A stretch of 64,000 nucleotides of DNA from Parcubacteria bacterium C7867-007 (GTDB lineage Bacteria > Patescibacteriota > Minisyncoccia > Phycocordibacterales > Phycocordibacteraceae). The stretch lies in NCBI GenBank assembly GCA_001189195.1, contig LFCQ01000003.1:207791-271790 (forward strand), written 5' to 3'. The notes under the pieces are model-generated. The model was not told the DNA's origin. It did not search any database and saw only the letters and a program-made list of their open reading frames with translations. This document shows, piece after piece, positions 20,797 through 59,384 of the stretch (its first letter is position 1; every line of letters starts with the position of its first letter). Position numbers and translations under genes: made by a program.

Positions 20797-20809
20797 GGAA
20801 ACATAGGGT

Positions 20810-21388: not shown

Positions 21389-21448
21389 CCATATTCTTGG
21401 CTGTTTTAATGAAGTAGTGTAAGATCAGTAAAATGTGGCCCACATACG

Positions 21449-21865
21449 GTGGGTCACGCACCTTTCAGGAGTCTCTGTGTGCATATCGATATTGTTGGAC
21501 TACACTCGCCAGAACACGAACGCGGTCGCTCGGTCGCGGCAACAAACCATCTCGGAGCAAACTTTAGCCAGTTGATGGCTAAGCTCAGAAGTAGGCCGAG
21601 TCTGAAGACGTACTTCGAACTTCATCGCGGGTCAGCTATCGGTCTCGGGAACGTGACGATTTCTCCCCGTGAAGATACGCCGGCGGTCCAGATTCGTCTG
21701 TCCTGGCTCCCCGAACACAACGAGGTACGGGCTGCGATCGTGGAGATGGTCGAGAACACCGTGTTCGCCGCATTTGAAGGAGCAGCAGACGTTCTGGTCT
21801 ACGGGCCAAACGATCGCTCTGTTCCAATCTCAGCGCGTCGTTGTATCGATACACAAGTTGCGTAG
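21449..21865 (+). CDS. hypothetical protein in a high-GC island (or structured RNA)
   Basis: A 138-aa ORF with high-GC3 codon usage unlike its neighbours. A TTGGCT-17-TAAGAT promoter-like pair sits at ~21401-21430 and a strong terminator follows. No family recognised. Confidence 0.3.
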   Translation: MGHAPFRSLCVHIDIVGLHSPEHERGRSVAATNHLGANFSQLMAKLRSRPSLKTYFELHRGSAIGLGNVTISPREDTPAVQIRLSWLPEHNEVRAAIVEMVENTVFAAFEGAADVLVYGPNDRSVPISARRCIDTQVA

Positions 21866-21887
21866 TAGATATGCGCAAACTCCCTTC

Positions 21888-21926
21888 GCCCCGGCAGCCT
21901 CTATGGCTGCCGGGGTTTCTTTTATA
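21888..21926 (+). terminator. intrinsic terminator
   Basis: CCCCGGCAGCC-tctatg-GCTGCCGGGG followed by tttcttttat. Confidence 0.6.
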
Positions 21927-21956
21927 TACACAAATAGTGCGTGGTATTCTGTTCTT

Positions 21957-22676
21957 ATGGATGCAGATCAGGATGTAGCACTCGTACAGGAATCTCGCAG
22001 TATATGGTTTATACCTGGTGCAATTATCGCTGCAGGTGTTCTGTTGGCGATAAGTATTTACGTGGTACGTACCACAATACCTCCAAGTGCTCCTAAGGGA
22101 GACATCTCTTATCTGCGACCAGTATCAGATTCAGATCACATTATAGGGAACCCAACGGCACCCGTTGTGATTATCGAGTATGCCGATATGGATTCCAGCT
22201 ACACCAAGACCTTCCAGCAAACCATGCAGCAAATTATGGCCGAGTATGCTCCTGGAGGAAAAGTGGCTTGGGTATATCGTCACTTCCCCCTTATCGATCA
22301 ATACCGAAACAGCGAACAGCATGCAGAAGCTGCTGAGTGTGCGAGCGCACTCGGTACCACAAACACATTCTGGACCTTCATTGATATTCTTCACGCACGC
22401 GCACCCGGGAATCAGGTATTCAATCCTCAAAACTACGACAGTATCATTGAATCTCTTGGTGTTGATCCTGCGAGATTTGAGTCATGCATGCAAGCAAATA
22501 CGTATCGTGAGCGAGTGAGTAACGATATATCAAATGCAATTGAAATCGGAGCATACAGCACACCAACCATCGTTGTGGTGATTAAGGGACAGAAGAAGCC
22601 TGTACTCATTAGTGGCGCTCTCCCCTATGACGCTATGAAGAAGATTATTCAGGAGTCGATTGCGAAGACGAAATAG
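21957..22676 (+). CDS. DsbA-like thioredoxin-fold protein lacking the CxxC motif
   Basis: An N-terminal TM anchor is followed by the DsbA fold (APVVIIEYADMDSSYTKTF...). At the position where DsbA has E(F/Y)xDYxCPxC this protein has EYADMDSSY, i.e. no cysteines. Confidence 0.65.
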   Translation: MDADQDVALVQESRSIWFIPGAIIAAGVLLAISIYVVRTTIPPSAPKGDISYLRPVSDSDHIIGNPTAPVVIIEYADMDSSYTKTFQQTMQQIMAEYAPGGKVAWVYRHFPLIDQYRNSEQHAEAAECASALGTTNTFWTFIDILHARAPGNQVFNPQNYDSIIESLGVDPARFESCMQANTYRERVSNDISNAIEIGAYSTPTIVVVIKGQKKPVLISGALPYDAMKKIIQESIAKTK

Positions 22677-25502
22677 CTAGGTAAATAATTTAAGTAGATC
22701 GTCATACTCAGAAGGTTCTCCTTTACGCCATGCACCAGACCACAACTCCTGGATCACCTCTTCTAAGGTGGTGGCGAGCTGGGTACGTATATCGTCTGTG
22801 AGGGGTATGGGGTATTCAGTTACATCCTCTGGGGAAACCTGCACAATGCTGGCGTGTGTGGTGTTGTGTCCACCAGAACGAAGGAGAAGGTCGTAGAAGG
22901 CGAGCTGGCGAGCATGCTTTTCATCTTTGATATGAACATCGCTTGAAGTCTTGAAATCCACAATACACTCCCCTGCCGGCGTACTAAAGATTGCGTCCAC
23001 CTTTCCTTGGAGCTTAATGCTATGTCCGGCAATTTCCTTAGTGACAGAAAAGCCCTTCTCGATTGCAACCACTTCTTTCAGAGTGCCTTCGTGTGCAATG
23101 TATGAGGCAAGACTGTTCTGTGCATGCTCCACCACACGATTGTATGCAGCGTTACGCGGCAGGAGTGACTTCTTAAGGCACCGTGCCAGCGCTGCTTCGG
23201 CCTCCTCCTCACTCTTGGTTTCAAGATATGCAGCAATACCAGCATGAACCGCAATACCAATAGCCGTAGCGGGTGCTTCTGGTTCATGGAGACGAAGTAC
23301 ACGTCGAGCAAAGAAGGTACTTGGAGACTCAAGGTATTCATTCATTGCTGATGGTGAGAGACCATCCTTGGTGAGGAATTCCTGCACCAATTCACAGACT
23401 AGTTTTGACGCGTTAACGGAAGCATGCAGAACAGGAAGCGGATCATACGCAGGGGTGATGCTTGGTATAGCGGACGGGAGGAGGGCTGATGGTGGTGTTT
23501 CTCTTCCATCTGCAGATTCAGCAGCATAGGAAAATACCAGCTCATCCTTCGCTCGCGTGATAGCTACATAGAAAAGCTTTGTTATATCCTCCAAGCTTCG
23601 AGATTGATCCACGGGTGATGGAATCTTTGCCGGCATTCCTCCCTTTTCCCATTGTCGCGCGTTCATCCCAACCACAAAAACCTTTTTAAACTCCATACCC
23701 TTGGCCTTATGCGCGGTGATTACCGTTACCTTTCCTTCTGCGAAGGTGATGCTTGTTTTAACATTCTCAAGTCCATGTTCATTTGCTTGTATTAACGTGC
23801 GCACTACATCTGCAAATGATTGATTAGGATTGCGTGCTACCAGCTCTTCAATATGCATAAAGAGCTTTCGTACTAGAGTGATGTCTTCTAGGTGATCTGC
23901 GTGCGACAGAAGGAATGCTCGTGCACCTGAGTCTATTAGTAATTTAGAAAGAAGTGGAAGTGGTGCAGTGGTGAGAACAGCAGCACGTAGTGTTGCTAAT
24001 GCTTCAGCCACGTTGGGTGCACGGGATTCAAGTGCAAGCATCAGTTCATTGTCTCGGTTCTGGCGCAGGAGTTCTGCGCGCTCGGAAAGGGCGAGTGGCC
24101 ACCACGGAGCAAGTAGTGCTTCACGTACACTACTTACATCAAGGGGATCTGCAATTGCGCGCATAAGCGCAAGAATGCCTCGTAGCGTTGCCCGGCTGCT
24201 CAGCAGTACGTCACCAGCACGAAGTGTGGGTACACCACGTGCAGTGAGTATTTCTGCAAACTCATTTGCAGTACTATTGCGGGCTGCTATCACCGCAATC
24301 TCGTGAGGTTCTGTTCCCGCTGCGATAGCATCTGAAATAAGCTGTGCAATCTGATCACGTTCAGCAAGTGGATCAGGTGCTGCAAGTACTGATATGGTTG
24401 CTGATTCTTCTCTGCCAGCCAAGGCAAGGTGCGTGCCTGTAGCGCTTGGCACAGCCTGAATAAGCGTGTGTGCCTTGTCTAGAATGCCCTGACGTGAACG
24501 ATAGCTGGTGGTGAGTGAGATAACTTCTGTGCGTGGGTAGTGCTCCGTGAAAGTTTTGAAATGGGAACTGTCTGCACCCTGGAAACGATAGATTGCCTGC
24601 TTCTCATCACCCACAACGAAGATGTTTGGGTGCTCATCATATGCAAGTACATCCAAGAGCGCGTGCTGGAGTGCATTAGCATCTTGGTGTTCATCAGCAA
24701 GGACGTATTGGTACTGCTCCTGGATGGATGCCCGCAGTTCTGCGTCTTCACTAAGTCCATCCACAGCAATACGCAGCACATCGGCGAAGTCGTATACCTC
24801 ACGTTCCTCTTTAAGGGTTTCGTATGCTTCGATAAGGCGTGCAGCTTCATATACTTTCTCTAACCGATCAAGTTTCTTCTGTCCCTCTGGCTTTAGTTCT
24901 CCTTTGGCACCATGTTTGCTATCTCGTTGGTACTGTAGAGATTCATCAGTGCGAATTCGATCTGCTTCTGTACGTGCCCATGCACGATAGTCGTCCAGTG
25001 AGATACGCTCACGCAGCAAGTCGTTACGGAGCATCGCAAGATCCGTTAAATAGAAGTATGGAGACTTTGTAGTACGGAGCGCCACAAGATCTTCGTTCTC
25101 TAATACTTCACGCCATAGCAAGGTGCTCTCAACATCACCTGCCAGCCGTTTCCCTATTGCTTGTGGGAATGAGTCTTGATAGTTCTGAAGCAGGTGCTCT
25201 GCAAAGCCATGAAAGGTTGTTATAAAAACATCCCGTGCTGCCGTGTCTCCAATCATGCTCGCAAGACGTGTGCGTACCGTGCGTGCTGCGCTCTCGGTAA
25301 AGGTGAGGACGAGAATGTTGGTGGGGTTGGCCTGTGTTAAGCGAAGGATGTTCGCAATGCGCAGTGTGAGAATGTGGGTCTTGCCGGTACCCGGTCCAGC
25401 AATAACCAGTACTGGACCCTCTACCGTATCAACAGCCTTCTTCTGGGCTTCATTAAGAGTGCCGTATGCCTTTAGGAACATGCCCTGGTCCGTCTTATCC
25501 AT
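22677..25502 (-). CDS. UvrD/PcrA-type helicase fused to a C-terminal PD-(D/E)XK (RecB/Cas4-like) nuclease (AddA-like)
   Basis: Walker A GPGTGKTH, UvrD motifs (VLADEHQD, TTSYRS, VITAHKAKGMEFKKVFV), and a C-terminal ...CIVDFKTSSDVHIK...QLAFYDLLL nuclease core. Confidence 0.85.
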   Translation of the reverse strand: MDKTDQGMFLKAYGTLNEAQKKAVDTVEGPVLVIAGPGTGKTHILTLRIANILRLTQANPTNILVLTFTESAARTVRTRLASMIGDTAARDVFITTFHGFAEHLLQNYQDSFPQAIGKRLAGDVESTLLWREVLENEDLVALRTTKSPYFYLTDLAMLRNDLLRERISLDDYRAWARTEADRIRTDESLQYQRDSKHGAKGELKPEGQKKLDRLEKVYEAARLIEAYETLKEEREVYDFADVLRIAVDGLSEDAELRASIQEQYQYVLADEHQDANALQHALLDVLAYDEHPNIFVVGDEKQAIYRFQGADSSHFKTFTEHYPRTEVISLTTSYRSRQGILDKAHTLIQAVPSATGTHLALAGREESATISVLAAPDPLAERDQIAQLISDAIAAGTEPHEIAVIAARNSTANEFAEILTARGVPTLRAGDVLLSSRATLRGILALMRAIADPLDVSSVREALLAPWWPLALSERAELLRQNRDNELMLALESRAPNVAEALATLRAAVLTTAPLPLLSKLLIDSGARAFLLSHADHLEDITLVRKLFMHIEELVARNPNQSFADVVRTLIQANEHGLENVKTSITFAEGKVTVITAHKAKGMEFKKVFVVGMNARQWEKGGMPAKIPSPVDQSRSLEDITKLFYVAITRAKDELVFSYAAESADGRETPPSALLPSAIPSITPAYDPLPVLHASVNASKLVCELVQEFLTKDGLSPSAMNEYLESPSTFFARRVLRLHEPEAPATAIGIAVHAGIAAYLETKSEEEAEAALARCLKKSLLPRNAAYNRVVEHAQNSLASYIAHEGTLKEVVAIEKGFSVTKEIAGHSIKLQGKVDAIFSTPAGECIVDFKTSSDVHIKDEKHARQLAFYDLLLRSGGHNTTHASIVQVSPEDVTEYPIPLTDDIRTQLATTLEEVIQELWSGAWRKGEPSEYDDLLKLFT

Positions 25503-25896
25503 CCCTCCATTCTACCTGACCCGTATATGCTGCCTATCTCTTCATGAACCACCCTTCATGGTATGGTTTGTATCAGGAATAGGGAGGACCAGTGATGCGA
25601 ATTGCTACCCACACGTACCTTGTGATTCCGCGCCCTGCCCAGCGGATGGCGCACACTCGCAGGCTGGGGCACCGCGATTTCCGCTGGTTCCTCAAGCACA
25701 AACGGATCGGGCTCACAGGCCGTGGGCACATGTACCAGAGGACCTGCCAGCTCCGTGCTGAGCGTCGGCAGCGCTTCAAGACCATTCGACAGCAACGCCG
25801 GCAACGACAAGCTACCACCCTGCACAAGCATCAGTATCGCAGCTGACGTTCTGAGAATGCCCGGGAACCGCAGAAGCGGATCCCGGGCTTCTTCAT

Positions 25897-26484
25897 TTAC
25901 TTGAACCCACTTTTTAGTACGGAACGCAGTCGCTTGTATTCAGGTATGGTCTCTCCCACCAGGCTCCAGAACTTTGGGGAGTGATTGTGCTCCTTTGTGT
26001 GACAGAGCTCATGTACGACAAGGTAGTCTTGCTGTGCAGGGGGAAGATAGGCGATGCGGTAGTTGAATGATAGGTTACCCGCAGCAGAGCAGCTTCCCCA
26101 TCGCGTCTTTTGGTTACGAATGGAGATGCTTCCGTACGTAAATTTATAGTGTTCATTGAAATGACTGAGTCTTTCGGTACTGATTGCTCGAGCGATTGCC
26201 ACCGCTTGTTTGTATGCAGCACTTCCCATACGAGGCTTTGGTAGTAGGATTGGTTCTGCAATACCAAGCTTCCTTCGCTTCTGCTCTATCTTCTTGGTGC
26301 GTGCAATAAATGCTTCCTTTGTTTGAAGAATCCATGCCGTGCGCTGTTTTAGAAATGCTTCTGCAATATGTAGAGGCATACGAATGGGTTTGGTGAGGAG
26401 TACCCGTCCATCTGGAAATACATCAATCCGCAGGTGCTTTGCCCGTGCGGATTCTCTGATCTCATGCGTTACTGTTTGACCCAT
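25897..26484 (-). CDS. DUF45 / YgjP-like zinc metallopeptidase-fold hydrolase (M48/WLM-like)
   Basis: [16 protein letters not shown] contains the HExxH...NH zincin-like motif characteristic of DUF45. Confidence 0.7.
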
Positions 26485-26559
26485 ACTATATCTTTGCTAT
26501 CATACTCTTATTACGGCTTCGGCCTCCGAGAGTCTTCGCAGCAGTGCGAAGACTCGTGT

Positions 26560-26979
26560 TTATATTAGTGACACTAGCAAGGCTTGCTTAGTTTCTCGAA
26601 AGTCATCTTCAGAAATTGAACCTATTTTGCGTAGCAAGCGCTTGCTACTAATAACCCGTACTTGAGTAAGCTTCACCCACGAGAGTTTTCCACGAATCTG
26701 AACTGGATGATGGAACGAGTTCTCATGTTTTTTGCTAGTAACTGGCAGAACTAGCAGAGTAAGGGAATTATACACTTTTAAAACCAATACTGGTCTTTCA
26801 AACACACTATTCTTTCCATCAATTTCAGCTCCAATATTGAGTCCAAGTGCACACCACCAGACTTCGCGATTGTGTGCAAATATATGTACAGAACGTTTTT
26901 CGAGAAACTTTTTCTGCTGATTCCATGTATCAAAATCTTTCTCACTTTGCATGACCGCAGAAGTATACGCCATGCACAT
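26560..26979 (-). CDS. PemK/MazF-family toxin-like endoribonuclease (no cognate antitoxin gene seen)
   Basis: REVWWCALGLNIGAEIDGKNSVFERPVLVLKVYNSLTLLVLPVTSK...QIRGKLSWVKLTQVRVISSKRLLRKIGSISEDDFRETKQAL matches the MazF/NdoA pattern G-x-V-W-x-x-L-x-x-x-G-x-E-x-x-G-K...RP-V-L-V-L...L-P-x-T-S...IRTI-SK-RL...IG-LS. The start may be Met10 (26952). Confidence 0.6.
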   Translation of the reverse strand: MCMAYTSAVMQSEKDFDTWNQQKKFLEKRSVHIFAHNREVWWCALGLNIGAEIDGKNSVFERPVLVLKVYNSLTLLVLPVTSKKHENSFHHPVQIRGKLSWVKLTQVRVISSKRLLRKIGSISEDDFRETKQALLVSLI

Positions 26980-27344
26980 AAAATTAAACTGAATCTTTTA
27001 TGGAAAGGAAAAGGCCCGCGCATCTCGCGCGAGCCTCCTTTATTCCGCTGCCGCGGCGGTGCGGTCAGTCGTCCGGCGGGCTGCTGCCCTGCCGCGGCGT
27101 CACGACCCCCCGAAGCGGGGACTGCCGGGACTCGCGTCCCTTGTGCCCTTTCGAGCCCTTGCTGCCATTGCAGCGGCGGTTTTGGATTCGAGCCAACCTC
27201 TTCTCCCTAAGTACTTCCCTGAGCCCCATTTGCCCAGAAACTACAAGTTATAACATGAGGTATGGGAAGTCAAATATACTGAATGACTGACTCCCAAAGT
27301 ACGAACAATATCTTACGTCGATGTACTTCGTTTATACTCTCTAT

Positions 27345-27806
27345 ATGAAATCTGAATCCCGGTACTGGCTCGTTAAATCTGAGCCCTCCTCATACTCCAT
27401 TGATGATTTGAAGGTGGACAAAAAGACTTCTTGGACGGGTGTTCGTAACTATACAGCTCGAAACTTTATGCGTGATGCTATGAAGCAAGGTGATCCGGTT
27501 CTCTTCTATCATTCCAGCTGCCCTGTTCCGGGTGTGTATGGTATTGCGAAGGTTGTATCTAAATCATATCCAGACCCCACTCAGTTTGACCCCGCGTCTC
27601 CCTACTACGATCCGAAAGCAACTGAAGAGAAACCTATTTGGTATTTGGTTGATATTGGCTTTGTTGCAAAGCTAAAGGACCCCGTTACGTTAGACGCGAT
27701 GAAGAAGGACAAGAGATTGCAGAACATGACGTTGCTTCAGCGAGGAAATAGGTTGTCTGTGATGGAAGTTAGAGCTAATGAGTTTGTGGCAATTGAATCG
27801 TCTTAG
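27345..27806 (+). CDS. EVE-domain (PUA-like) protein
   Basis: RYWLVKSEPSSYSIDDL...WTGVRNYTARNFMRDAMKQGDPVLFYHSS...GVYGIAKVVS is the canonical EVE/THYN1 signature. Confidence 0.75.
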   Translation: MKSESRYWLVKSEPSSYSIDDLKVDKKTSWTGVRNYTARNFMRDAMKQGDPVLFYHSSCPVPGVYGIAKVVSKSYPDPTQFDPASPYYDPKATEEKPIWYLVDIGFVAKLKDPVTLDAMKKDKRLQNMTLLQRGNRLSVMEVRANEFVAIESS

Positions 27807-27847
27807 ATTGCTGGGTGTTTGGGGGCTAAAATATAAATATAAGTATA

Positions 27848-27890
27848 TAAAAACAACAGCCTGCTCGTATGCAGGCTGTTGTCCAATATA
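27848..27890. terminator. bidirectional terminator between convergent EVE gene and rpoD
   Basis: aaaaACAACAGCCTGC-tcgtat-GCAGGCTGTTGT followed by ccaatataat. Confidence 0.65.
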
Positions 27891-27906
27891 ATAACTATGC
27901 TAGAAA

Positions 27907-29202
27907 CTAATAACTCTTAAGACGTCGAGACTTCTCATGAGTCCTGATCTTCTCAAGTGCCTTTGCTTCAATCTGACGAATACGCTCACGGGTAACACCA
28001 AACTCCTTGCCTACTTCCTCAAGGGTGTGGTACACACCGTCGAGTAGACCATGGCGCATTTCAAGAATCTTGCGCTCCTTTGGTGAGAGGTCGTCGAGAA
28101 TGTCACGCACCTGTTCTGTGAGGATACGCTCAGATGATTCCTGAACCGGAGATGGAATCTTATCATCTGCAATAAAGTCTCCGAGGGTAGACTGATCATC
28201 ACCGTCAGAACCAACGGGATTCTCAAGTGAAAGAGTGTCCTGATTGATCTTCTCAATCTGGTAGATCTTATCTACCTCAACACCCATCTCAATAGCGATT
28301 TCTTCAGGCTGTGGGTCACGACCAAGTGCCTGTGCGAGACGGCGTGATACCTGCTTGTATTTAGCGATGGTCTCAACCATGTGCACAGGAATACGAATGG
28401 TGCGGGATTGGTCTGCAAGGGCACGAGTGATAGCCTGACGGATCCACCATGTTGCATAGGTTGAGAACTTGTATCCTTTCTTCCAATCGAACTTGTCTAC
28501 GGCCTTAAAGAGACCCAGGTTACCCTCTTGAATAAGGTCGAGGAGCGTGAGGTCAGGAGAACGACCTACGTACTTCTTTGCGATAGACACCACAAGACGA
28601 AGGTTTGAACGGGCAAGAATATTGCGTGCCTCTGCATCTCCCGCATCTATACGCTTTGCGAGTTCCTTCTCTTCTGCACCCGTAAGAAGTGGGTACTGGC
28701 CAATCTCACGAAGATAGATTTGGATGGAGTCGTATCCAGAAGACTCACGACCTTTGATGTTACGGGTTGCGAGATATTCATCTGCATTGTCTTCGAGCAT
28801 ACCTCCTTCAAGGATATCGATGCCTGCAATGGTGAAACGCTCATAAAGGTCATCGAGGAAGGATACGTCCTCTTCTACATGCGGGAACTCCTTAAGGATT
28901 TCACTGTATGTGATGTATCCACGCTCCTTGCCTTTCGCGATAAGGCGAGTTGCTTTGTCCTGGTTTGCCGCAGCAGCTTTTGCCTTAACACCCGTAACAG
29001 CAGCACGCACTACGTTCGCTGCACGGACATTCTTAGCAGCTTTCTTTGGTGCTGCTTTCTTAACAACCTTTTTGGGTGCAGCCTTCTTAACCACCTTCTT
29101 TGCAGGCTTTACCATTTTCTTGACTACTTTCTTAGGAGCAGCCTTCTTCACAACTTTCTTGGGTGAAGACTTTTTCACCACCTTCTTCTTTGCGGTAGGC
29201 AT
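27907..29202 (-). CDS. rpoD: RNA polymerase sigma-70 factor with N-terminal Lys/Ala/Pro-rich (histone H1-like) repeat domain
   Basis: Regions 2-4 are present ([38 protein letters not shown]; region 4 [21 protein letters not shown]). The N-terminal ~70 aa consist of ([11 protein letters not shown])n repeats. Confidence 0.9.
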
Positions 29203-29243
29203 AGGGAAAATGTATTAGGGAGATAATGTAGAAAATATAAAAA

Positions 29244-30959: not shown

Positions 30960-31072
30960 TCTACTCCAGAACGGAATTCACAGCACAAGTGTAAAAAGAT
31001 GGCCCCCGACGCGCAATGCGTCGGGGTGCCGTTGGGCGTCTCTTGCGAGACATTCTGGTCCGGAAGGTGGAC

Positions 31073-31261
31073 CTACTGGGTGGCGACCTGGTGGGTCACC
31101 GCGCCGACGCCGTTGTCCTGCTGCAGGCCGACCAGGGTGCGGGCGGCAGTGGCCGGCTGGCCGGTGTCGGTCGACGGAGCGGCGATGCTCTGCACGGTCG
31201 GGGCGCCGAAGGTGAGGGAGGAAACGAGCGCCATGTGGCGCGTGGTGCGATGGGAACTCAT
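31073..31261 (-). CDS. small high-GC ORF with signal-peptide-like N-terminus (hypothetical secreted peptide)
   Basis: MSSHRTTRHMALVSSLTFGAPTVQSIAAPSTDTGQPATAARTL...VATQ*. GC is ~65% versus ~50% nearby. It has its own terminator (CCCCGACGC-attgc-GCGTCGGGG + T-run, minus strand, ~31010-31045). Confidence 0.35.
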   Translation of the reverse strand: MSSHRTTRHMALVSSLTFGAPTVQSIAAPSTDTGQPATAARTLVGLQQDNGVGAVTHQVATQ

Positions 31262-31394
31262 GGGAACCTCGCTCGAAAGGACAGTTTTATCGAGGCGGAC
31301 GCCACGACTCACTCACTATACTCCTGTTCATGAAGACTGCAAGAACTTATACACAGATAAAGAAAAACGGCCTTTCGGCCGTCTTTCTAAGATA

Positions 31395-31524
31395 TCCTCG
31401 CTTATTTGCGGATTTCCCTCATCACTAGTAATACTATTCCTCAACGCAATAACCGTCAACATAATTGCGCCGGTGGAGGGACTTGAACCCTCGAGGATAT
31501 CTTGATGAGGGAAATCCTCGCAAA
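31395..31524. repeat. ~19-bp imperfect inverted repeat (ttgcgGAtttccctcatca / tgatgagggaaaTCCTcgcaa) flanking an ~88-bp core that contains a tRNA-like T-arm
   Basis: Arms are at 31395-31414 and 31503-31524; rc(right) = ttgcgAGGAtttccctcatca. Confidence 0.5.
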
Positions 31525-31536
31525 CCTGCCACCGAC
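31466..31536 (-). tRNA. tRNA-like element (canonical T-arm GAGGG-TTCAAGT-CCCTC and a 7-bp acceptor, but no clean D/anticodon arms)
   Basis: The minus-strand read is GTCGGTG GC ...GAGGGTTCAAGTCCCTC CACCGGC G CA. The acceptor pairs 7/7 with one G-U. The middle instead forms a 6-bp GAGGAT/ATCCTC stem with a 15-nt loop. Confidence 0.3.
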
Positions 31537-31651
31537 TCAAACAGGATATAAAAGGTGTGATGACGGCACGGTCCAAGGAAAATAAACTCTCACTGAATAA
31601 AAAGAACACTGCCCTTTCGAGCAGTGTTCTTTTTAAAACTTTGTTGGCAGG

Positions 31652-35386: not shown

Positions 35387-35409
35387 AGAGGTGGAATTAG
35401 AAGATACGA

Positions 35410-38592: not shown

Positions 38593-38803
38593 AGGGTACG
38601 TGAAAATGAAGTACGGAAACGCGAAATGGGCTCATACATGCATGAGCCACGTCTCTCGTTTTCCGAGACGCTTGATAAATCAATCTTTTTCTTACTGAGA
38701 AGCCCTTCTCCCGCCAGAGTGCCTGCCACCACTCAATCCGTTCTGGTTAAAGACAGTATATAGGGGTATGGGGACCCGTCAAGTGAGTTTTGGGTGAAAT
38801 GAG

Positions 38804-38848
38804 AAAAGGCGGGTCCACAGTTTTGTGGTACCCGCCCTTTATTCTGCT
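38804..38848. terminator. bidirectional terminator
   Basis: aaaaGGCGGGTCCACAG-ttt-TGTGGTACCCGCC followed by ctttattctg. Confidence 0.55.
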
Positions 38849-38860
38849 CCCGCGCGGTGC

Positions 38861-39259
38861 TTAGCGTAGGAGTCGGCCGGTGAACGGCCTAGATGCTGCT
38901 CCCTTCGGGGAGAAATCGAGCCCGCGGTGACCCTTGGTGAACCGCTGATAGAGCAGGTCCCAGTCGCCGAAGGTCTGCTGGATCTCGGTCAGGACGAACC
39001 TGATCGAAGCAGAGCCGAGAACGAGCAGGATGGAAGCGATGAAGCCGGTCGCCTGCGCGAGCAAGTTCATCACGAAGCTCGTGTCGGTCACCAGCGGCAT
39101 GAGAAGCACGCCGGCGGCAGCGATCGCGAACATCCAGACCTTGAAGGTCTTGGTCAGCAGCTGCTCCGCCACCGGACCCATCGTGAAGATGGCTGCGGCG
39201 AAGGAAACAGCCGAGAAGAAGACCATATTCGGCCAGTCGGTAGCCCAGTCGAAGTGAAT
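38861..39259 (-). CDS. high-GC hypothetical membrane protein
   Basis: MIHFDWATDWPNMVFFSAVSFAAAIF...: about four TM helices, GC ~60% with GC3-rich codons. The ORF extends to 39340, but MIHF at 39259 is preferred. Sits between rpoB and trmD. Confidence 0.4.
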   Translation of the reverse strand: MHFDWATDWPNMVFFSAVSFAAAIFTMGPVAEQLLTKTFKVWMFAIAAAGVLLMPLVTDTSFVMNLLAQATGFIASILLVLGSASIRFVLTEIQQTFGDWDLLYQRFTKGHRGLDFSPKGAASRPFTGRLLR

Positions 39260-39385
39260 CATCTTGGTTCCCCCAACGGAAAACGATGAAAGAGGCAGTG
39301 AGGCGGGTGCCACACACACCGGACTAGTAGCTGAAAACAAATATACCCCTTTTAGGGGTACTTGTCAATAGCATGAATATGTGTC

Positions 39386-40066
39386 CTATTTAGCACCCTT
39401 CTTTGCAACTTTCCACTCATCTATTTTTGCTCGGTGCCCTGAGAGCAGGATTGCAGGAACTTTGTATTTCTTCCCTTTGAAGTCTAGTACTTCGGGACGT
39501 GTGTATACGGCATTAGACGCAACACGACGCTCTTCAACCGACTCATCCTTTCCAAGGACTCCAGGGATACGGCGAGTCACCGCATCGACAATAGCCATAG
39601 CAGGGACTTCCCCACCAGTGAGGGTTGCCTCCCCTACAGAATACGTGAGGAACTTTGAGCCTGTCTTCCCTTTTAGAAAGGCTTTGAGCATAGAAACTGC
39701 CCGATCATCAATACCTTCGTACCGGCCACATACCAGCACCACATCATCGAACTTCATGAGAGCATCGGCTTCCTTGTTATTAAAAGGTTTTGCACCAGGC
39801 ACAAACCAAACGATCGCGGTCTTTCCATTGCGACGACTAAGGGCTCTCTTCACTGCCTTCACCACAGGAAGGGCGGTCATAACCATACCTGGCCCACCAC
39901 CGTACGGACGCTCGTCTACCTTCCCCCATTTGTTGGAGACGTAGGTGCGTGGACTTTGATAATCCACTTTGATCTTCTTTGCCACGCGGGCACGTCCCAG
40001 AATAGACGCATTGAGATATGCGTCGCAGACTTCTGGGAAAAGTGTAATGAGATGAAAGCGCAGCAT
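39386..40066 (-). CDS. trmD: tRNA (guanine37-N1)-methyltransferase
   Basis: MLRFHLITLFPE..., SPOUT knot motifs (GRYEGIDDR; SIGDYVLTGGE-like SVGEATLTGGEVPAMAIVDAVTR). Confidence 0.9.
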   Translation of the reverse strand: MLRFHLITLFPEVCDAYLNASILGRARVAKKIKVDYQSPRTYVSNKWGKVDERPYGGGPGMVMTALPVVKAVKRALSRRNGKTAIVWFVPGAKPFNNKEADALMKFDDVVLVCGRYEGIDDRAVSMLKAFLKGKTGSKFLTYSVGEATLTGGEVPAMAIVDAVTRRIPGVLGKDESVEERRVASNAVYTRPEVLDFKGKKYKVPAILLSGHRAKIDEWKVAKKGAK

Positions 40067-40072
40067 CGTGAG

Positions 40073-43134: not shown

Positions 43135-43137
43135 TGC

Positions 43138-43170
43138 GAAACCCCCTTATTTAAAAGGGGGTTGTTCGTT
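43138..43170 (+). terminator. intrinsic terminator
   Basis: AACCCCCTT-attt-AAAAGGGGGTT followed by gttcgtttaattttc. Confidence 0.7.
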
Positions 43171-43637
43171 TAATTTTCTCATTAAATTAAACGTAATGCA
43201 GACCGGATTGTCTGTGTAGATTTTGTGGACACCTTCAGGTAGTAATTCTCCGAATAGTCTGTACTACAGTAGTGGTTCCATGTGCGATCATTTCATGTGG
43301 TCAGCGTAGGCTTGGGTAGTGCTTAGGTAGACTTAGGCGAATACCAGGTCCGTCTCCGATATGGATGTTGCGTACGGAGTTGGGTATTAATTTCCCTAGA
43401 TTCACTCTGGTGCGCCACCGCTATGTGGTACCGCAACCGTGTAGACCAGTCTTTATCACCCTTATCTTTGATTGGATCCACCTTTAGGGTTGTCCATTCG
43501 CAGAAACGGCATTTGACTCGTTCGTCGCTGTTTTGCATTGCATGTCCTCTCTGAAAGTCAGAATGGGTGATGCCTGCTAACCACGAGTAGATCAAGATTC
43601 CGCTCTAACTATACATTTCTAATATTTAAAGTCAAAT

Positions 43638-53836: not shown

Positions 53837-55588
53837 ATGGTATCCCTCGAAGAAAAGCGCCATACATTGGCCCATTTACTGGCTGCAGCCGTACAGGAAC
53901 GGTATTCCCACGCTAAGGCAACTATTGGTCCAGCGGTAGAAAATGGCTTCTATTACGACTTCGATTTCTCTGGGGGTGAAGCACCCAAGGAGGCTGATTT
54001 AATTGAGCTTGAGAACGCAATGCGTGAACTTCTTCCCTCTTGGGAGAAAATGACCGGTACTGAAGTATCAGAAGATGATGCACGTTCTCGTTTTATAGAT
54101 AATCCTTTCAAGCTGGAAATTATCGACGGCATCGTTGCTTCAGGTGAGAAGATCACTTTGTACACTGCCGGTGACTTCACAGACCTCTGTCGTGGAGGCC
54201 ATAGTGAACATCCCTCAAAGGACATTAAAGCTGACTCATTCATTCTCGATCGTGTTGCGGGCGCGTACTGGCGAGGTGATGAAAACAAACCAATGCTCAC
54301 TCGAATCTACGGTCTCGCATTTGATACAAAAGAAGAAACGGAGGCATATGTTTCCGCACGTGAAGAAGCAAAGCAACGTGATCATAAGAAGCTTGGCAAG
54401 GAACTCGACCTCTTCTTTATTGATGAGAAGGTTGGCAAGGGACTTCCCCTTTGGACCCCAAAGGGTACTGCAGTGAAGTTTGAGATGGAGAACTTTGTCC
54501 GTACGCTTGAGCGTTCATATGGCTATGAGCACGTTTCAACACCGTACCTAGGTGGTGAGGAGCTGTATCGAACATCTGGTCACCTTGATCACTACAGTCA
54601 CAACATGTACGCACCTATCGATATGGATGGCGACATGTTCTATCTCCGCCCAATGGCCTGCCCGCATCACATTCGTATGTTCCAGCGCAAGCCATGGAGC
54701 TACCGCGACCTCCCTGTTCGCTACGCAGAAATTGCAGACTACAATCGCTACGAGAAGTCTGGTGAGCTTATGGGTATGATTCGTGTGCGTAAGTTTCAAC
54801 TTTCAGATGGGCACATCTTCGTAAGTCCAGAAGGACTTAAGGAAGAGTTTAAGAATGTATGTCGCATGATCGTTGAGGGTATGAAGGGTCTTGGTCTTAT
54901 TGATATTGTTTCGTACCGTTTCTCGAAGCGTGATCCAAACAATAAAGAAAAATACTATCCAGACGACGAACTTTGGAACCACGCGGAGGCACTTATGAAA
55001 GAGGCCCTTGATGAACTGGGCTTCGACTATGTTGAGGCAGAAGACGAAGCAGCGTTCTATGGCCCTAAGCTTGATGTGCAGGCACGCAATGTAAACGGGA
55101 AGGAAGACACGCTCTTCACGGCACAGATGGACTTCCTTCTTCCTGAGAAGTTTGATATTGAATACACCGACGCCACCGGTCAGAAGAAACGCCCCGTGAT
55201 GATTCACCGTTCAACGATTGGTAGCCTAGAGCGTGTGTTTGGATTCTTGATTGAACACTATGGTGGCGCCTTCCCCACCTGGCTCGCACCCGTGCAGGTT
55301 AAGATCCTTCCTATCTCTGCAGAGAAGCATTTGGAGTACGGCAAAGAGATTCTTGCACAGCTTACGGGTGCAGGTGTACGTGCTGCGTTAGATGACGCCA
55401 ATGATTCTCTTGGCAAGCGTATTCGTGCAGCAAAGGCAGAGAAGATTCCATACCTCCTTGTTATTGGTGACGCAGAAGCTGAAGCAAAGACCGTCACCAT
55501 CGAGAGTCGTGATAACGGAAAGATGGAGGCCGTTCCAATGGTTGAATTTGTTGCAACCGTTCAAAAAGAAATAAAAGATCGCGCGTAG
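53837..55588 (+). CDS. thrS: threonine--tRNA ligase (catalytic + anticodon-binding; short N-terminus)
   Basis: Class II motifs (FRYEKSGELMGMIRVRKFQLSDGHIF; the HRSTIGSLERVFGFLIEHYGG region) and a C-terminal anticodon-binding domain. The start is assigned to MVSLEEKRHTL (53837). Confidence 0.9.
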   Translation: MVSLEEKRHTLAHLLAAAVQERYSHAKATIGPAVENGFYYDFDFSGGEAPKEADLIELENAMRELLPSWEKMTGTEVSEDDARSRFIDNPFKLEIIDGIVASGEKITLYTAGDFTDLCRGGHSEHPSKDIKADSFILDRVAGAYWRGDENKPMLTRIYGLAFDTKEETEAYVSAREEAKQRDHKKLGKELDLFFIDEKVGKGLPLWTPKGTAVKFEMENFVRTLERSYGYEHVSTPYLGGEELYRTSGHLDHYSHNMYAPIDMDGDMFYLRPMACPHHIRMFQRKPWSYRDLPVRYAEIADYNRYEKSGELMGMIRVRKFQLSDGHIFVSPEGLKEEFKNVCRMIVEGMKGLGLIDIVSYRFSKRDPNNKEKYYPDDELWNHAEALMKEALDELGFDYVEAEDEAAFYGPKLDVQARNVNGKEDTLFTAQMDFLLPEKFDIEYTDATGQKKRPVMIHRSTIGSLERVFGFLIEHYGGAFPTWLAPVQVKILPISAEKHLEYGKEILAQLTGAGVRAALDDANDSLGKRIRAAKAEKIPYLLVIGDAEAEAKTVTIESRDNGKMEAVPMVEFVATVQKEIKDRA

Positions 55589-55599
55589 CATACATGAAG

Positions 55600-55638
55600 A
55601 GGCGCCGGGACCAAAGATCCCGGCGCTTTTCTTTCCCA
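55600..55638. terminator. bidirectional terminator
   Basis: GGCGCCGGG-accaaagat-CCCGGCGC followed by ttttctttcc. Confidence 0.7.
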
Positions 55639-55647
55639 CCCGTCACG

Positions 55648-55908
55648 CTATTCGAAGCTGTGTCGCTGGCTAATGATCAATTCCTCATTGAACTGCTGCA
55701 CCTGCGTATCGACGTCGCTCGAAAAGTGAACGGTAGCTTCCTGCACCGGTTCCCGACAAAGGAGGTATCCGGTCGCCAAGAGGAACGTCGCAACGCCAGC
55801 TATAAGCCAACCCCATGGCCCCATAGGACGCACGGGACTTGGGTCTGGGGGTGGTTCGTAGTAGTGGCGATCATTGGCAGGTCGCTTGATTTGTGGATCT
55901 ACACGCAT
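55648..55908 (-). CDS. hypothetical small membrane protein
   Basis: An 86-aa ORF with one TM helix (WGWLIAGVATFLLATGYLL) and a Pro-rich N-terminus. Terminators lie on both sides. Confidence 0.3.
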   Translation of the reverse strand: MRVDPQIKRPANDRHYYEPPPDPSPVRPMGPWGWLIAGVATFLLATGYLLCREPVQEATVHFSSDVDTQVQQFNEELIISQRHSFE

Positions 55909-55969
55909 GAGCGTCTCCCCATGTTTTTTTGGCAGTATGCCCTGCGATAAACGGTACTCCTGTTTGAAT

Positions 55970-56004
55970 AAAAAGAAAGCGCCCGCAAGCGGGCGCTTTC
56001 TTTT
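55970..56004. terminator. bidirectional terminator
   Basis: aaaagaaaGCGCCCGC-aag-CGGGCGCtttctttt. Confidence 0.7.
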
Positions 56005-56014
56005 AGAGCACTGC

Positions 56015-58120
56015 TTATCCGTTCACAATCGCAAGAGCACGTGTTGCTGCAAGCTTTGCACCGGTCATACCAGCTGAATAGCTTGAATCAATTGCTGTTG
56101 CAAGTGAAGAGACGAGACGCTCAAGGAAGTGCGTTGCGCAATCTGAAGTGATGCGTGCAATCTCAGGGTGACACGGGGTGCCATCAATGCGAGCGCGGTA
56201 TGCATCATCAAGAGCACAGACGGCATGTGCAAGGAATTCCTGTGCATCACCACCCGTACGGTTCACGGTACGGAGAGTACCGAATACTTGTTCGCGGTCT
56301 CCAGAAAGGAGTGCGCCAAGGAAGCCGGAAATATCATCCGAGTACGTGATGGTCTCTACCGGTGCAGCAACTGGTACTGCCTGTGGCATAACCTCTTCCT
56401 GAACCTCTACCTTCGCGGCGCGTGGTGCCATATCCATATCATACGATGGGATTGATGGTGCTTCTACCTGTTCAAGGTGTGGAGCAAATACCATTCCAGA
56501 CTCACGTGAGAGACCCTTTACGATGTCATCGATCGTGAGTGCTTCGTTTGTAGCGAAGGACTTGAATCCCTGCTGCTGAAGCTGGTTAAGCGCAGGCGCT
56601 GCTGAGACCTGTATTGGTTCGATGTGTGCAACGTGAGCAACAGGCTCATAGGTTGGGATCGCTACAGGCATTGGTGTTGATTGTGGCATAGGTTCCGTGA
56701 CTTGTGGTGCTTCTGAATTAATTGCTTCCTGTACATTACTACCAAATGCCTTTGCGCGTCGAATTGCGAATGGGACACCTGCAAAGAGAATGAGGTATGC
56801 CGCTGCACCACTCCAAAGCACGAGACTTATCCAATAGATGGTGGTGCCAACAGGACCGAGCTCAAGACCGGTGTATGGAATCTGTGAGAGGTACACAGAT
56901 GCGAGAGGCTGTGAAGACGCAAGCATAACGTTTGGTCGACTACGACCACCTCCTCCGCCACCTCCTCCGCCACCGCCGCCGCAGTTCTCTGTACAGCCAG
57001 TCGTTGGGATCTTAATCTCCACCTTACAACTTGGGTTTGAGGTATCACCAGGGACACTAAGCTGATAGGTAGTTTCTGATGTTGGGTTAACCGTCTTGGT
57101 GCCATTAAGGGCAACCGACTCACCATTAAGAGTAGCGGAACTTGCATTCTGCGTATTCCAGGTAAGGATCACGTCCTCACCTGACTTAATTGAAGTCTTG
57201 CTTGCGGTTAGAAGTACACACTTACCCGGGTTACCTCCTCCACCTCCTGGAGGAGTTGTTGTAGTGGTGATCTTTACACTCACCACGCAAGGATTGCTTC
57301 CAACTGCACTTGGTACTGTCGCAGTGTATGTAGTATCTGCAGTTGGCTTAACGGCAACTGTCCCGAATGGAATTTGGGTGAATGTGCCAACACCATTATC
57401 AATAGTGATTGATGTTGCGTTAGCAGTGGTCTGCCATGAAAGCTGAATAGTTTCACCTGCAGTGATTGTTGTCTGGCTCGCAGTGAGCGCAAGACACTTT
57501 GGTACCTCAGGTACTACCGGTGGGATAACCGGTGGAACTACGGGGGGTACCACTGGAGGTACTACTGGTGGAACTACGGGAGGTATCGTTGGAGGAACCA
57601 CAGGAGGTACCACTGGTGGAGTAGTCTCAGGGAGCGTACAACACGGAGGAAGTATGTCTGGTGGAGCTACTATCGGTGGTGTAAGTGGTGTGTCGCTGGG
57701 AACAGTACAGCAAGGTGGGAGTACATCCGGTGCAGGTGTTACGGGTGGTGTTGGAGGAGTTGAGTCGGGAATAGTACAACACGGAGGAAGTACGTCTGGT
57801 GGTGGTACCACAGGCGGTGTTGGTGTTGGCGCATCAGGTATGGTGCAGCACGGCGGCAGTGCATCCGGTTCAGGAGTTGGAACTATAGGTGGTGGTGGAA
57901 GTGGTGGGAGTACAGGAGGAGGTGGTGGAGGTGGAGGTGTTGGAACAGTACAGCAGGGCGGCAGTACATCGAAGGCTTTCACCATCTGCGGCGTAGCAAA
58001 ACCAGTCGCGAATGCAGTCGCCATTCCCACCGAAAGTACGGCGAGCACAGCGAACACACCCGTTGCGATAGGGTTTAGCTTTGAAGGCACGCGGCCGTTC
58101 GAAGAGTTGATTGATTCCAT
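56015..58120 (-). CDS. large Pro-rich surface protein with (D)VLPPCCT(V/I)P repeats, two Ig-like domains, a Gly12 run, an internal TM helix and a ~250-aa C-terminal cytoplasmic domain
   Basis: N-terminal TM/signal, then five PPCC repeats embedded in poly-Pro and (PPVV)n. Two ~90-aa Cys-bounded beta-rich modules follow (CLALTASQTTITAGETIQLSW...; CVLLTASKTSIKSGEDVILTW...). Then G12, IPYTG + TM + RRAK, and a C-terminal helical domain. Confidence 0.7.
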   Translation of the reverse strand: MESINSSNGRVPSKLNPIATGVFAVLAVLSVGMATAFATGFATPQMVKAFDVLPPCCTVPTPPPPPPPPVLPPLPPPPIVPTPEPDALPPCCTIPDAPTPTPPVVPPPDVLPPCCTIPDSTPPTPPVTPAPDVLPPCCTVPSDTPLTPPIVAPPDILPPCCTLPETTPPVVPPVVPPTIPPVVPPVVPPVVPPVVPPVIPPVVPEVPKCLALTASQTTITAGETIQLSWQTTANATSITIDNGVGTFTQIPFGTVAVKPTADTTYTATVPSAVGSNPCVVSVKITTTTTPPGGGGGNPGKCVLLTASKTSIKSGEDVILTWNTQNASSATLNGESVALNGTKTVNPTSETTYQLSVPGDTSNPSCKVEIKIPTTGCTENCGGGGGGGGGGGGRSRPNVMLASSQPLASVYLSQIPYTGLELGPVGTTIYWISLVLWSGAAAYLILFAGVPFAIRRAKAFGSNVQEAINSEAPQVTEPMPQSTPMPVAIPTYEPVAHVAHIEPIQVSAAPALNQLQQQGFKSFATNEALTIDDIVKGLSRESGMVFAPHLEQVEAPSIPSYDMDMAPRAAKVEVQEEVMPQAVPVAAPVETITYSDDISGFLGALLSGDREQVFGTLRTVNRTGGDAQEFLAHAVCALDDAYRARIDGTPCHPEIARITSDCATHFLERLVSSLATAIDSSYSAGMTGAKLAATRALAIVNG

Positions 58121-58233
58121 AAGATGTTCTGGGATAGTAAAAAGCGCACTGCCCTGCCGTTTTCACGGCGTACAAAAAAGAGGAGTGGTGACGCGCGCGC
58201 AAAACGAGCGCGTCACCAGAAGTGGTAGCTGAC

Positions 58234-59268
58234 CTACTTGGGGTAGGTGACGTGCGACGGAAGGACCGTCGCAACGTACTTGCCGTCAGGTTGCTTCACG
58301 AAGTGAACCGAACGGATGCCGACGGCATTCGAATGGCTTCTCACCGTGCGCTTTTGCTCGACCCCGTCGACGACGGTGGTCACGACGTGGCTCTTCGTCC
58401 AGCAGAAGACGATCGTGTAGACGTCCCCTTTTGTGACGATGGACTTCGGCACGTACAAGATGTTGTTCGTGCCGAAGTGCTCCGGCACTTCACTGATCGG
58501 CTTCTGCAGCTTGCGGCCCGTCGCGTTAACAAGGGCCTGCATGTTGCAGAGGTATTCCGGGCATTGGTCGGGTAGTTCCCGATCATATTTGGTCGTGCCG
58601 GACCACTTGATGCCCCAGCAGGTCGACTTGGGGAACGCTTCGTTCCCCATCACCGGGATGTTCACCCCGATGTCCTTTCCATCAGTGTTCTGAGTCGGGA
58701 AGATGACCTCGGCACATTCATCCTCAACGACGACTTCCTCAACCTCGAGCAGCGCGATGTTCGCGCAATCCTCGAGAGCGATGACCTTACCTGTCTGGGT
58801 GTCATACCAGGCAAACTCGTCGTCGCGCAGTTCACGCTTGAATCCACTGTTGAGGTCCAGCACCATCTTCCCGTTGACCTCGATCATGCGGGAAGAGAGG
58901 TACCAGCCGCCTTTGACTTTTTGCCTCGAGAGGCTACGGAAAAAGGCCGGAAGTTGCTCCGCCTTGGTGATTCCGGAATCTGAATGCCATTTCACAATGG
59001 CTTCCAAATACGAATTCGGCGTAGCGCAGCGAGATCGGTTGGCCGGGGTGCATTCGCCGGGGGCGAGCAACCCATTTCCCGAAGGATCGTCCTTCAGGGA
59101 CCGTTCGATCCGCTGTGCCGCATCTTCGGGACCTTTCAGGCCCTTCATGAGCGGGTGACCAGGATGTTGTTCCGAGGTCGACGAAGTGTTCGTTTGCGCC
59201 GCCTGCGCAGTCCCCGCCGTGAAGGCGAAGGCCAGCACGGCGGCCGTTGCGAGCAGTTGCGTACGCAC
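58234..59268 (-). CDS. high-GC hypothetical secreted protein
   Basis: Signal peptide MRTQLLATAAVLAFAFTAGTAQA. The 344-aa protein has several Cys pairs. GC is ~60% with GC3-rich codons, unlike the housekeeping genes. Confidence 0.6.
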   Translation of the reverse strand: MRTQLLATAAVLAFAFTAGTAQAAQTNTSSTSEQHPGHPLMKGLKGPEDAAQRIERSLKDDPSGNGLLAPGECTPANRSRCATPNSYLEAIVKWHSDSGITKAEQLPAFFRSLSRQKVKGGWYLSSRMIEVNGKMVLDLNSGFKRELRDDEFAWYDTQTGKVIALEDCANIALLEVEEVVVEDECAEVIFPTQNTDGKDIGVNIPVMGNEAFPKSTCWGIKWSGTTKYDRELPDQCPEYLCNMQALVNATGRKLQKPISEVPEHFGTNNILYVPKSIVTKGDVYTIVFCWTKSHVVTTVVDGVEQKRTVRSHSNAVGIRSVHFVKQPDGKYVATVLPSHVTYPK

Positions 59269-59384
59269 TTCTGTAACTCCTCTGTTGTCGTCCCGTAGGA
59301 CGAACTGATTGAATGTTCAGGTACTCACCACACATGTGATGAGGCTTACTACAATTACTTGCAGCGAGCGATCTGACCAGAGCA

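Follow-up and report, generated by a model that had tools for sequence, protein, structure and literature searches.

What are the small GC-rich segments that lie wedged between conserved housekeeping genes of Parcubacteria bacterium C7867-007, and were they brought in from elsewhere? We addressed this question in 64,000 nucleotides of GenBank assembly GCA_001189195.1 (contig LFCQ01000003.1, positions 207,791 to 271,790 of the forward strand; hereafter the window, whose numbering is used for coordinates), in which eight such segments had been noticed, numbered here as islands 1 to 8 in coordinate order. A preliminary description had read them as recent horizontal acquisitions from a high-GC donor, possibly the actinobacterial host of a Saccharibacteria-like episymbiont. 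We find that the compositional contrast is real and sits at synonymous sites in five open reading frames (ORFs). The gene of island 8, fam8, is an old, clade-specific gene of a secreted family, ancestral and vertically inherited, not a recent import. For the set as a whole, the reading to which we lend about half of our confidence is that the islands are a mixed collection of small accessory genes at variable junctions between operons, neither one phenomenon nor host DNA.

C7867-007 comes from Hanford groundwater and is represented by a metagenome-assembled genome (MAG) of 702 kb and 48% GC, one of the Parcubacteria genomes in which nucleotide-skew analysis found no newly acquired genes (Nelson & Stegen 2015, PMC4508563). 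The Saccharibacteria framing has to be abandoned: the genome is that of a Parcubacterium (Paceibacteria/Kaiserbacteria-like), the proteins of islands 1 and 5 are exactly C7867-007 proteins, and the nearest relatives by RpoC are Paceibacteria or Kaiserbacteria-type MAGs. The closest of these is isolate RYN_391 (locus L001), at 93% amino-acid identity, and the synteny of the rpoBC neighbourhood is kept in the relatives.

Composition and coding character of the islands

The window as a whole has a GC content of 0.490 (standard deviation 0.044 across 200-bp windows), and each island was tested against all equal-length windows outside the islands, about 2,000-2,300 per test. Five of the eight are strong outliers, with binomial z scores of 3.9-6.0 and no outside window as GC-rich, namely island 2 (25550-25900, GC 0.593), island 3 (27000-27240, 0.651), island 4 (30970-31330, 0.643), island 5 (38800-39350, 0.590) and island 8 (58150-59340, 0.577). 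The picture of eight discrete segments of 55-65% GC stands for these five and in part fails for the other three, which are weak (GC 0.54-0.58): island 1 (21450-21930, GC 0.549), island 6 (49040-49760, 0.544) and island 7 (53580-53830, 0.578) have a GC level equalled by 0.4-0.9% of other windows.

The same division appears at third codon positions. Core genes of the window have a third-position GC content (GC3) of 0.438 (standard deviation 0.044, n=26), from which the ORFs of islands 4 (0.92), 5 (0.83), 3 (0.80), 8 (0.75) and 2 (0.71) all depart, while those of islands 1, 6 and 7 do not; the latter, together with one extra ORF described below, have GC3 values of 0.55-0.59. GC1, GC2 and GC3 are 0.65, 0.57 and 0.92 in island 4, 0.54, 0.44 and 0.83 in island 5, and 0.57, 0.43 and 0.75 in island 8. 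Of four ORFs previously called GC3-rich, the three at 31073-31261, 38861-39262 and 58234-59268 (all minus strand; islands 4, 5 and 8) are indeed so, and the fourth, placed at 21449-21865, reaches a GC3 of only 0.56-0.57 (z about 2). Two GC3-rich ORFs had been overlooked, at 25595-25846 on the plus strand (0.71) and 27065-27229 on the minus strand (0.80). The GC content of the weak islands 1, 6 and 7 comes from Arg-rich or otherwise ordinary small ORFs and from GC-rich terminator hairpins.

Codon choice in the islands is of a generic high-GC type, opposite to the preferences of the core. CCG, GGC, GTC, CTG and CGG are used at frequencies of 0.73, 0.49, 0.45, 0.33 and 0.21, against 0.16, 0.17, 0.07, 0.09 and 0.03 in core genes, which prefer CCA, GGT, GTT or GTA, CTT and CGT. 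Island codons are therefore not an amplified form of the genome's own bias, which makes ordinary translational selection unlikely; we rejected it because the codons are those that the core avoids, and because rpoBC and L32 have almost no GC3 excess.

Are these sequences genes at all? Most islands form a compact gene unit, in which a Shine-Dalgarno sequence precedes a short ORF and a strong hairpin with a T run closes it, and hairpin terminators, as previously proposed, were found for islands 1, 2, 3, 4, 5, 7 and 8. From their sequences, most islands are predicted to encode secreted, membrane or very basic proteins. It could still be argued that they are structured non-coding RNAs, chimeric assembly artefacts, or GC-rich intergenic DNA whose ORFs are spurious: GC-rich DNA has long ORFs in several of its frames, island 6 combines several hairpins with the lack of a convincing ORF, island 5 is called on opposite strands by the Joint Genome Institute (JGI) and GenBank, and one Logan contig stops at the island 5 edge. 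We regard all of these as very improbable. Islands 2, 3, 4, 5 and 8 show strong three-base periodicity in a single frame, with a Shine-Dalgarno sequence at the right distance except in island 3; Rfam gave no match at gathering score in the window and none in the islands even at E<=5. Island 6 apart, the structured-RNA reading was rejected on this periodicity and this negative search, and fam8 is moreover a conserved protein family with invariant cysteines and motifs. As for assembly, the GenBank MAG and the JGI assembly agree in having islands 1-3 and 5 (of the two, only the JGI copy was found to contain island 8), a Logan assembly has island 1 too, and eight chimeric inserts each falling exactly between syntenic core genes would be implausible.

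The fam8 gene beside sortase

Island 8 consists of a single gene, fam8 (58234-59268, minus strand), which encodes 344 aa with a signal-peptide-like N-terminus, has GAGGAG upstream, and ends in a terminator hairpin followed by a U run (58174-58218, minus strand). A sortase gene of normal GC3 (0.47; 59385-60044, minus strand) lies immediately upstream. Unlike the other island genes, fam8 can be traced: a HMMER profile search (E<=1e-3) gathered 238 representative clusters, mostly of 320-370 aa, where a word-indexed search had turned up only three relatives. Ten of the clusters were looked up, and all came from metagenomes or MAGs, with Candidatus Kaiserbacteria as the sole organism name. Their alignment shows seven invariant cysteines and the invariant motifs G.PLMKGL and DTQTG.

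DNA context was available for ten fam8 loci (the window, L081, L082, L093, L103, L168, L169, L171, L172 and L173). The gene directly follows sortase in all ten, and a CARDB protein stands on its opposite side in most. Across these loci, whose GC content ranges over 32-59%, fam8 exceeds its neighbours in GC3 every time, by +0.31, +0.16, +0.13, +0.25, +0.25, +0.21, +0.12, +0.08, +0.11 and +0.08. Among 33 gene families common to the relatives, it is the sole outlier, with a mean excess of +0.18 against at most +0.07 for the next family; rpoB, rpoC and L32 stand at +0.02-0.03, and sortase, CARDB and the downstream gene at -0.01 to -0.04. Genes that occupy the position after sortase in loci without fam8 are not GC3-rich. 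Furthermore, when the window is compared with L081, fam8 has an excess identity of 0.21 at four-fold sites, which falls within the range of its neighbours (0.25, 0.10 and 0.07), so fam8 is no younger than they are.

Recent acquisition of island 8 is thus contradicted: all ten lineages have the gene in this position behind sortase, with enriched GC3. The preliminary description had reasoned that islands equally GC-rich in all relatives would be ancestral structured RNAs rather than insertions; island 8 is GC-rich throughout its relatives, as that reasoning foresaw for an ancestral element, though what it holds is a coding gene and no structured RNA.

What holds fam8 GC-rich? A force tied to the coding sequence or the transcript would explain G or C being held at synonymous sites regardless of genome bias, and the likeliest candidate may be selection on the composition of the mRNA or coding sequence, acting through expression or stability. 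A different view would attribute the GC3 excess to GC-biased gene conversion at surface and accessory loci that recombine often, and to neither transcript selection nor foreign origin. This fits the enrichment of codons that end in G or C and that the core does not prefer, the hypervariable slots between relatives with their conserved flanks, and an excess in fam8 at any genome GC. Recombining bacterial genes are enriched in non-optimal G/C-ending codons, according to Lassalle et al. 2015 (PMC4450053). Against it, the excess persists in ten lineages while sortase, CARDB and the downstream gene are without it, and conversion tracts are unlikely to stop at gene boundaries over long periods. Moreover, GC3 shifts of +0.1 to +0.3 are large for this mechanism. 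We consider GC-biased conversion improbable as the general cause of the excess; for fam8, conversion focused on the gene would be a less likely force than transcript selection, because the neighbouring genes lack a GC3 excess.

Transcript selection may be part of a wider pattern, which we put forward as a tentative and rather unlikely generalization. Paceibacteria would keep a class of secreted or surface genes GC3-rich by a gene-confined force independent of genome GC, as in fam8 across 32%-59%, one candidate being that mRNA composition is selected for stability or expression where the RNA-decay and translation machinery of the cell is minimal. Separately, conserved 'expression slots' would lie beside core operons, each with a resident promoter, Shine-Dalgarno sequence and terminator, into which unrelated small coding sequences are repeatedly swapped.

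The position of fam8 next to sortase raised the possibility that it is a sortase substrate. This was rejected for want of a C-terminal sorting signal: the C-terminus (...VLPSHVTYPK) has no LPXTG-type motif, hydrophobic segment or basic tail. Structure prediction with AlphaFold2 gave a mean predicted local distance difference test score of 49, with only residues about 40-165 confident, and the best Foldseek match in the PDB had E=0.66.

Next to fam8 on the other side lies the gene of a 701-aa surface protein (56015-58120, minus strand), which carries five PPCCT[IV]P repeats, poly-Pro/Val and poly-Gly tracts, and a mid-protein sorting-signal-like IPYTG with a transmembrane segment and RRAK, followed by a long C-terminal domain. 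Its 5' part (57500-58120, minus strand) is GC-rich through GC1 and GC2, with a GC3 of 0.37-0.39, and the GC-skewed stretch at 57.5-58.1 kb is accordingly not an island, being Pro/Gly-repeat coding sequence. In the JGI annotation this gene is split, and the Gly-rich ORF called antisense to it is probably spurious. Further downstream is the extra, weak island ORF mentioned above, absent from the earlier list (55648-55908, minus strand; 86 aa, one transmembrane segment, GC3 0.59).

Orphan genes at variable junctions

The remaining islands carry genes that stand alone. In 165 related loci, no relative could be detected for any ORF of islands 1-7. The proteins of islands 1 and 5 were searched against 5.8 billion proteins and matched only themselves, and no island protein gave anything above noise in Pfam, PHROGs, NCBIfam or PADLOC. 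In spot checks, plasmids and phages yielded no match for island 4, nor did viral contigs for island 5. The island proteins show no similarity to one another, which excludes paralogy, and no repeats shared among the islands were found. Island 4 matches 46579-46596 exactly over 18 nt, but there the sequence belongs to another gene, in a different frame and strand, and the match was dismissed as chance.

The slots that hold these genes differ widely in length between relatives, unlike control junctions, whose lengths are tight. Five of six (rnh|dsbA, dnaG|rpoC, L32|rnhB, dnaE|aminoacyl-tRNA synthetase and aminoacyl-tRNA synthetase|p532) are empty, at <150 bp, in 31-57% of relatives, and the sixth, rpoB|trmD, ranges over 157-3,881 bp. 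The flanking core genes dnaG|rpoC and rpoB|trmD are as first described. The lack of relatives in 165 loci, together with the often-empty junctions, makes a gain in the C7867-007 lineage plausible. Such a lineage-specific gain is plausible for islands 2-5 and refuted for island 8.

The rpoB|trmD slot illustrates this variability. Island 5 holds an ORF of 133 aa (38861-39262, minus strand; GC3 0.83), with GGGGG 8 nt upstream, that is 100% identical to the GenBank protein AB202_01390; described earlier as a four-transmembrane protein, it has three clear hydrophobic segments, not four, in a Kyte-Doolittle scan. A promoter-like TTGACA-17-TATATT (39340-39368, minus strand), with 11 of 12 consensus matches and conserved in L001, overlaps the trmD terminator hairpin (39343-39361), and a terminator hairpin (38797-38840, minus strand; -30.5 kcal/mol, z -4.4) aligns with its L001 counterpart. 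In L003, L012 and L013 the same slot shrinks almost to its minimum length and shows no clear gene; it holds differently sized small membrane proteins in L001, L002, L004, L005, L009 and L015, and other genes in L006 and L007. Between the window and L001 the flanks align, that is, the trmD terminator/promoter hairpin with TTGACA-17-TATATT, the terminator and the rpoB leader, and so does the Shine-Dalgarno region (GTTGGGGGAACC in the window, GTTGGGAGAACC in L001). The coding sequence between them cannot be aligned, and BLASTP found nothing at E<=100; the L002 slot protein is likewise unrelated to that of island 5, and no frameshifted homology between the slot-5 genes of the window and its relatives was found.

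Two further observations concern this junction. The Logan contig mentioned above (L167, SRR2043728_423425) ends 67 bp past trmD, at window position about 39320, which could reflect strain heterogeneity or low coverage at the slot. On the rpoB side, at 38593-38782 (minus strand), lie a promoter-like TTGACG-16-TATACT belonging to rpoB itself and a hairpin-bearing leader of about 165 nt; the leader aligns well with L001, is still alignable with L005 by BLASTN, and looks conserved.

In the dnaG|rpoC slot, the ORF of island 4 (31073-31261, minus strand) encodes 62 aa, has GAGG 6 nt upstream and, with a GC3 of 0.92, is the most extreme of all. The signal peptide once ascribed to it has only a weakly hydrophobic core in the Kyte-Doolittle scan, by which the 344-aa fam8 protein retains its signal-peptide-like N-terminus. 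A promoter-like TTGCAG-N17-TATAGT (about 31299-31327) is common to L001, where its counterpart precedes a different ORF of 30 aa, and the terminator lies at 31004-31026 (minus strand).

Between the rpoC terminator and island 4 lies a tRNA-like element (31469-31536, minus strand; 13845-13925 in L001). Its acceptor stem and T-arm (GAGGG-UUCAAGU-CCCUC) are intact, its D-arm is stunted and its 'anticodon' loop spans about 15 nt. ARAGORN made no call for it, nor any tRNA call elsewhere in the window, and it weakly matches the tRNA-like mascRNA model. A homologue with compensatory changes was found only in L001, which has no island 4 ORF. Beside it, at 31361-31459 (minus strand), a promoter-like TTGACG-17-TAGTAT (31459-31431) and a terminator (31388-31361) enclose about 45 nt that hold an inverted copy of GATGAGGGAAATCC from the tRNA-like element; judged by this arrangement, the stretch might encode a small RNA or act as an antisense partner.

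The ORFs of islands 2 and 3 are short and very basic. That of island 2 (25595-25846, plus strand) encodes 83 aa with a net charge of +21 and a GC3 of 0.71, has GGAGG upstream and is followed by a terminator hairpin (25853-25893, plus strand; -30.2 kcal/mol, z -5.8). That of island 3 (27065-27229, minus strand) encodes 54 aa with a charge of +9 and a GC3 of 0.80, has no clear Shine-Dalgarno sequence, and ends in a hairpin at 27003-27039 (minus strand; -36.9 kcal/mol, z -4.2). The 139-aa gene beside island 3 (26560-26979, minus strand) deviates the other way, towards low GC (GC 0.40, GC3 0.34). Judged by eye its product might have a PemK/MazF-like fold, and a PADLOC scan found nothing; both the gene and island 3 are missing in L015, where p161 and ygjP-like genes adjoin.

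The weak islands complete the set. Island 1 encodes a soluble, near-neutral protein of 128 aa (21479-21865, plus strand; GenBank AB202_01335, 100% identical) with a weakly atypical GC3 of 0.57. It starts at a GTG preceded, 7 nt upstream, by AGGAG, and ends at an intrinsic terminator (21888-21916, plus strand) whose 12-bp stem has 10/12 G-C pairs and is followed by a T run. Island 6 is a 600-bp intergenic region (49165-49764) from the L32 gene (rpmF) to rnhB, with several hairpins and two doubtful minus-strand ORFs, one of 76 aa with GGGGA upstream (49495-49725) and one of 61 aa without a Shine-Dalgarno sequence (49188-49373), both with a GC3 of only 0.55-0.57. Island 7 encodes a very basic protein of 53 aa (53613-53774, plus strand; charge +17, GC3 0.59) with GGAGG upstream, a promoter-like site at 53553-53581 and a terminator at 53784-53811; its GC comes mostly from Arg codons.

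Other junctions behave similarly outside the islands. Between rpoD and the p161 homologue, L001 carries a low-GC segment of about 4.2 kb (17776-21983) that the window lacks, another variable junction. In the window, two ORFs for small membrane proteins, of 43 aa (45926-46057, minus strand) and 149 aa (46206-46655, minus strand; GC3 0.62), each have their own terminator-like hairpin and lie outside the GC-rich islands, which indicates that junctions in this genome commonly hold small membrane genes, irrespective of composition.

The contrast of the islands is sharpened by the composition of the genome itself. Core GC3 is lowest here among the close relatives sampled (0.45, against 0.67 in L001, 0.79 in L002 and 0.67 in L005; further relatives have 0.69 in L012 and 0.51-0.52 in L004 and L013), whereas GC1 and GC2 of the core are virtually identical across these close relatives. 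Every L001 orthologue is higher in GC3, by 0.12-0.22. The low core value thus makes the island contrast sharper, and island GC3 is either normal for sister lineages or higher still. As L001 is separated from the window by 93-95% amino-acid identity in RpoB and RpoC, synonymous composition has shifted quickly and genome-wide within a narrow clade. No clade-wide rule of GC3-rich non-conserved ORFs emerged, since 870 gap ORFs from 133 loci of the wider clade differ in GC3 by a mean of about 0 with symmetrical tails; the effect is specific to particular genes and lineages.

Where, then, did islands 2-5 come from? They could be recent transfers across phyla from a donor of about 65-73% GC, possibly a host, that have not yet ameliorated. 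Their GC3 of 0.71-0.92, with generic high-GC codons opposite to the core, would fit, as would the absence of relatives in related loci, the slots that are empty in many relatives, and a value (0.92) above the core of any relative sampled. We nonetheless think such transfer unlikely. The island 5 ORF is without a homologue in 5.8 billion proteins, as is the orphan of island 1, which is not GC3-rich; spot checks found no counterpart of island 4 among plasmids and phages or of island 5 among viral contigs. The promoter regions of islands 4 and 5, along with the Shine-Dalgarno region and terminator of island 5, are homologous to L001, which would not be expected if a whole cassette had come from a distant donor. 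No integrase or transposase genes, flanking direct repeats or other insertion scars were found, this Parcubacterium has no known host, and the sole GC3-rich gene that can be traced, fam8, is ancestral. For the particular donor first suggested, no island protein that was searched has a homologue in Actinobacteria or another high-GC group, and nothing points to a host, the relatives of island 8 being confined to metagenomes or Paceibacteria-type MAGs; a host-derived actinobacterial origin is unsupported. Islands 2-5 would instead be recent gains or replacements in variable slots, and the most plausible route may be recombination in the conserved flanks with GC-richer members of the same clade.

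A mixed set of accessory genes, weighed and compared

Several points weigh against a mixed set of accessory genes gained within the clade, with transcript selection acting on fam8. The conventional highly expressed genes rpoBC and L32 are almost without a GC3 excess, the fam8 comparison covers ten lineages with few neighbouring genes in each, and selection on transcript composition is something we infer only. Orphan GC3 reaches 0.92, above the core GC3 of every relative sampled (maximum 0.79), so a GC-richer relative is no more than a putative donor, and the codon usage of the orphans would be explained equally well by an unrelated donor of 65-73% GC. In none of the searches made did any orphan have a homologue, so both routes are candidates only. 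Moreover, the non-conserved ORFs of the 133 wider-clade loci are not systematically GC3-rich.

These findings bear on how composition is read. Heterogeneity exists at the scale of single small genes, contrary to the report on these genomes (PMC4508563), so that turnover of small genes in the candidate phyla radiation (CPR) is easily missed. A GC3 island can also be ancestral, as fam8 shows, which cautions against taking composition alone as a sign of horizontal transfer or host origin. If its gene-confined excess is indeed transcript selection, fam8 would serve the long-standing question of how bacterial genes stay rich in GC in the face of AT-biased mutation. Accessory genes that are small, atypical and placed at variable junctions are a known phenomenon, and the orphans are otherwise ordinary, uncharacterised small proteins; what is unusual here is the persistent GC3 excess of fam8, which its neighbours do not share.

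Among known systems, the closest parallel is the 'alien gene' signature, in the reasoning associated with Lawrence and Ochman, of atypical islets and ORFans at variable junctions between core genes. The islands resemble such islets as short segments of deviant GC3 and codon usage between syntenic core genes, with no detectable relatives or homologues. They differ in being richer in GC than the genome, whereas acquired genes are usually richer in AT, in being single genes of 160-400 bp, in sharing the promoter region of islands 4 and 5 with a relative, and in having no mobility genes or repeats. Island 8, ancestral and deviant in all its lineages, runs contrary to the model.

Two further comparisons concern genes of similar composition or setting. 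The recombining bacterial genes of Lassalle et al. 2015 (PMC4450053), whose raised GC3 is attributed to GC-biased gene conversion, are alike in their excess of non-preferred G/C-ending codons and their variable surface or accessory loci; the effect here looks large in comparison, and the excess of fam8 is not common to its neighbours. Host-to-episymbiont gene transfer, for its part, has been reported for Saccharibacteria and their Actinomyces hosts, which are alike in pairing an ultra-small CPR genome with genes of deviant composition. C7867-007 differs as a Parcubacterium with no known host, and no island protein that was searched has an actinobacterial homologue. Finally, fam8 recalls the sortase-linked surface proteins of Gram-positive bacteria and CPR members, being predicted to be secreted and lying directly downstream of sortase and near a CARDB-domain protein. 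It departs from them in having no LPXTG-like motif, anchor or basic tail; a sorting-signal-like IPYTG with a transmembrane segment and RRAK is instead found in the neighbouring 701-aa protein.

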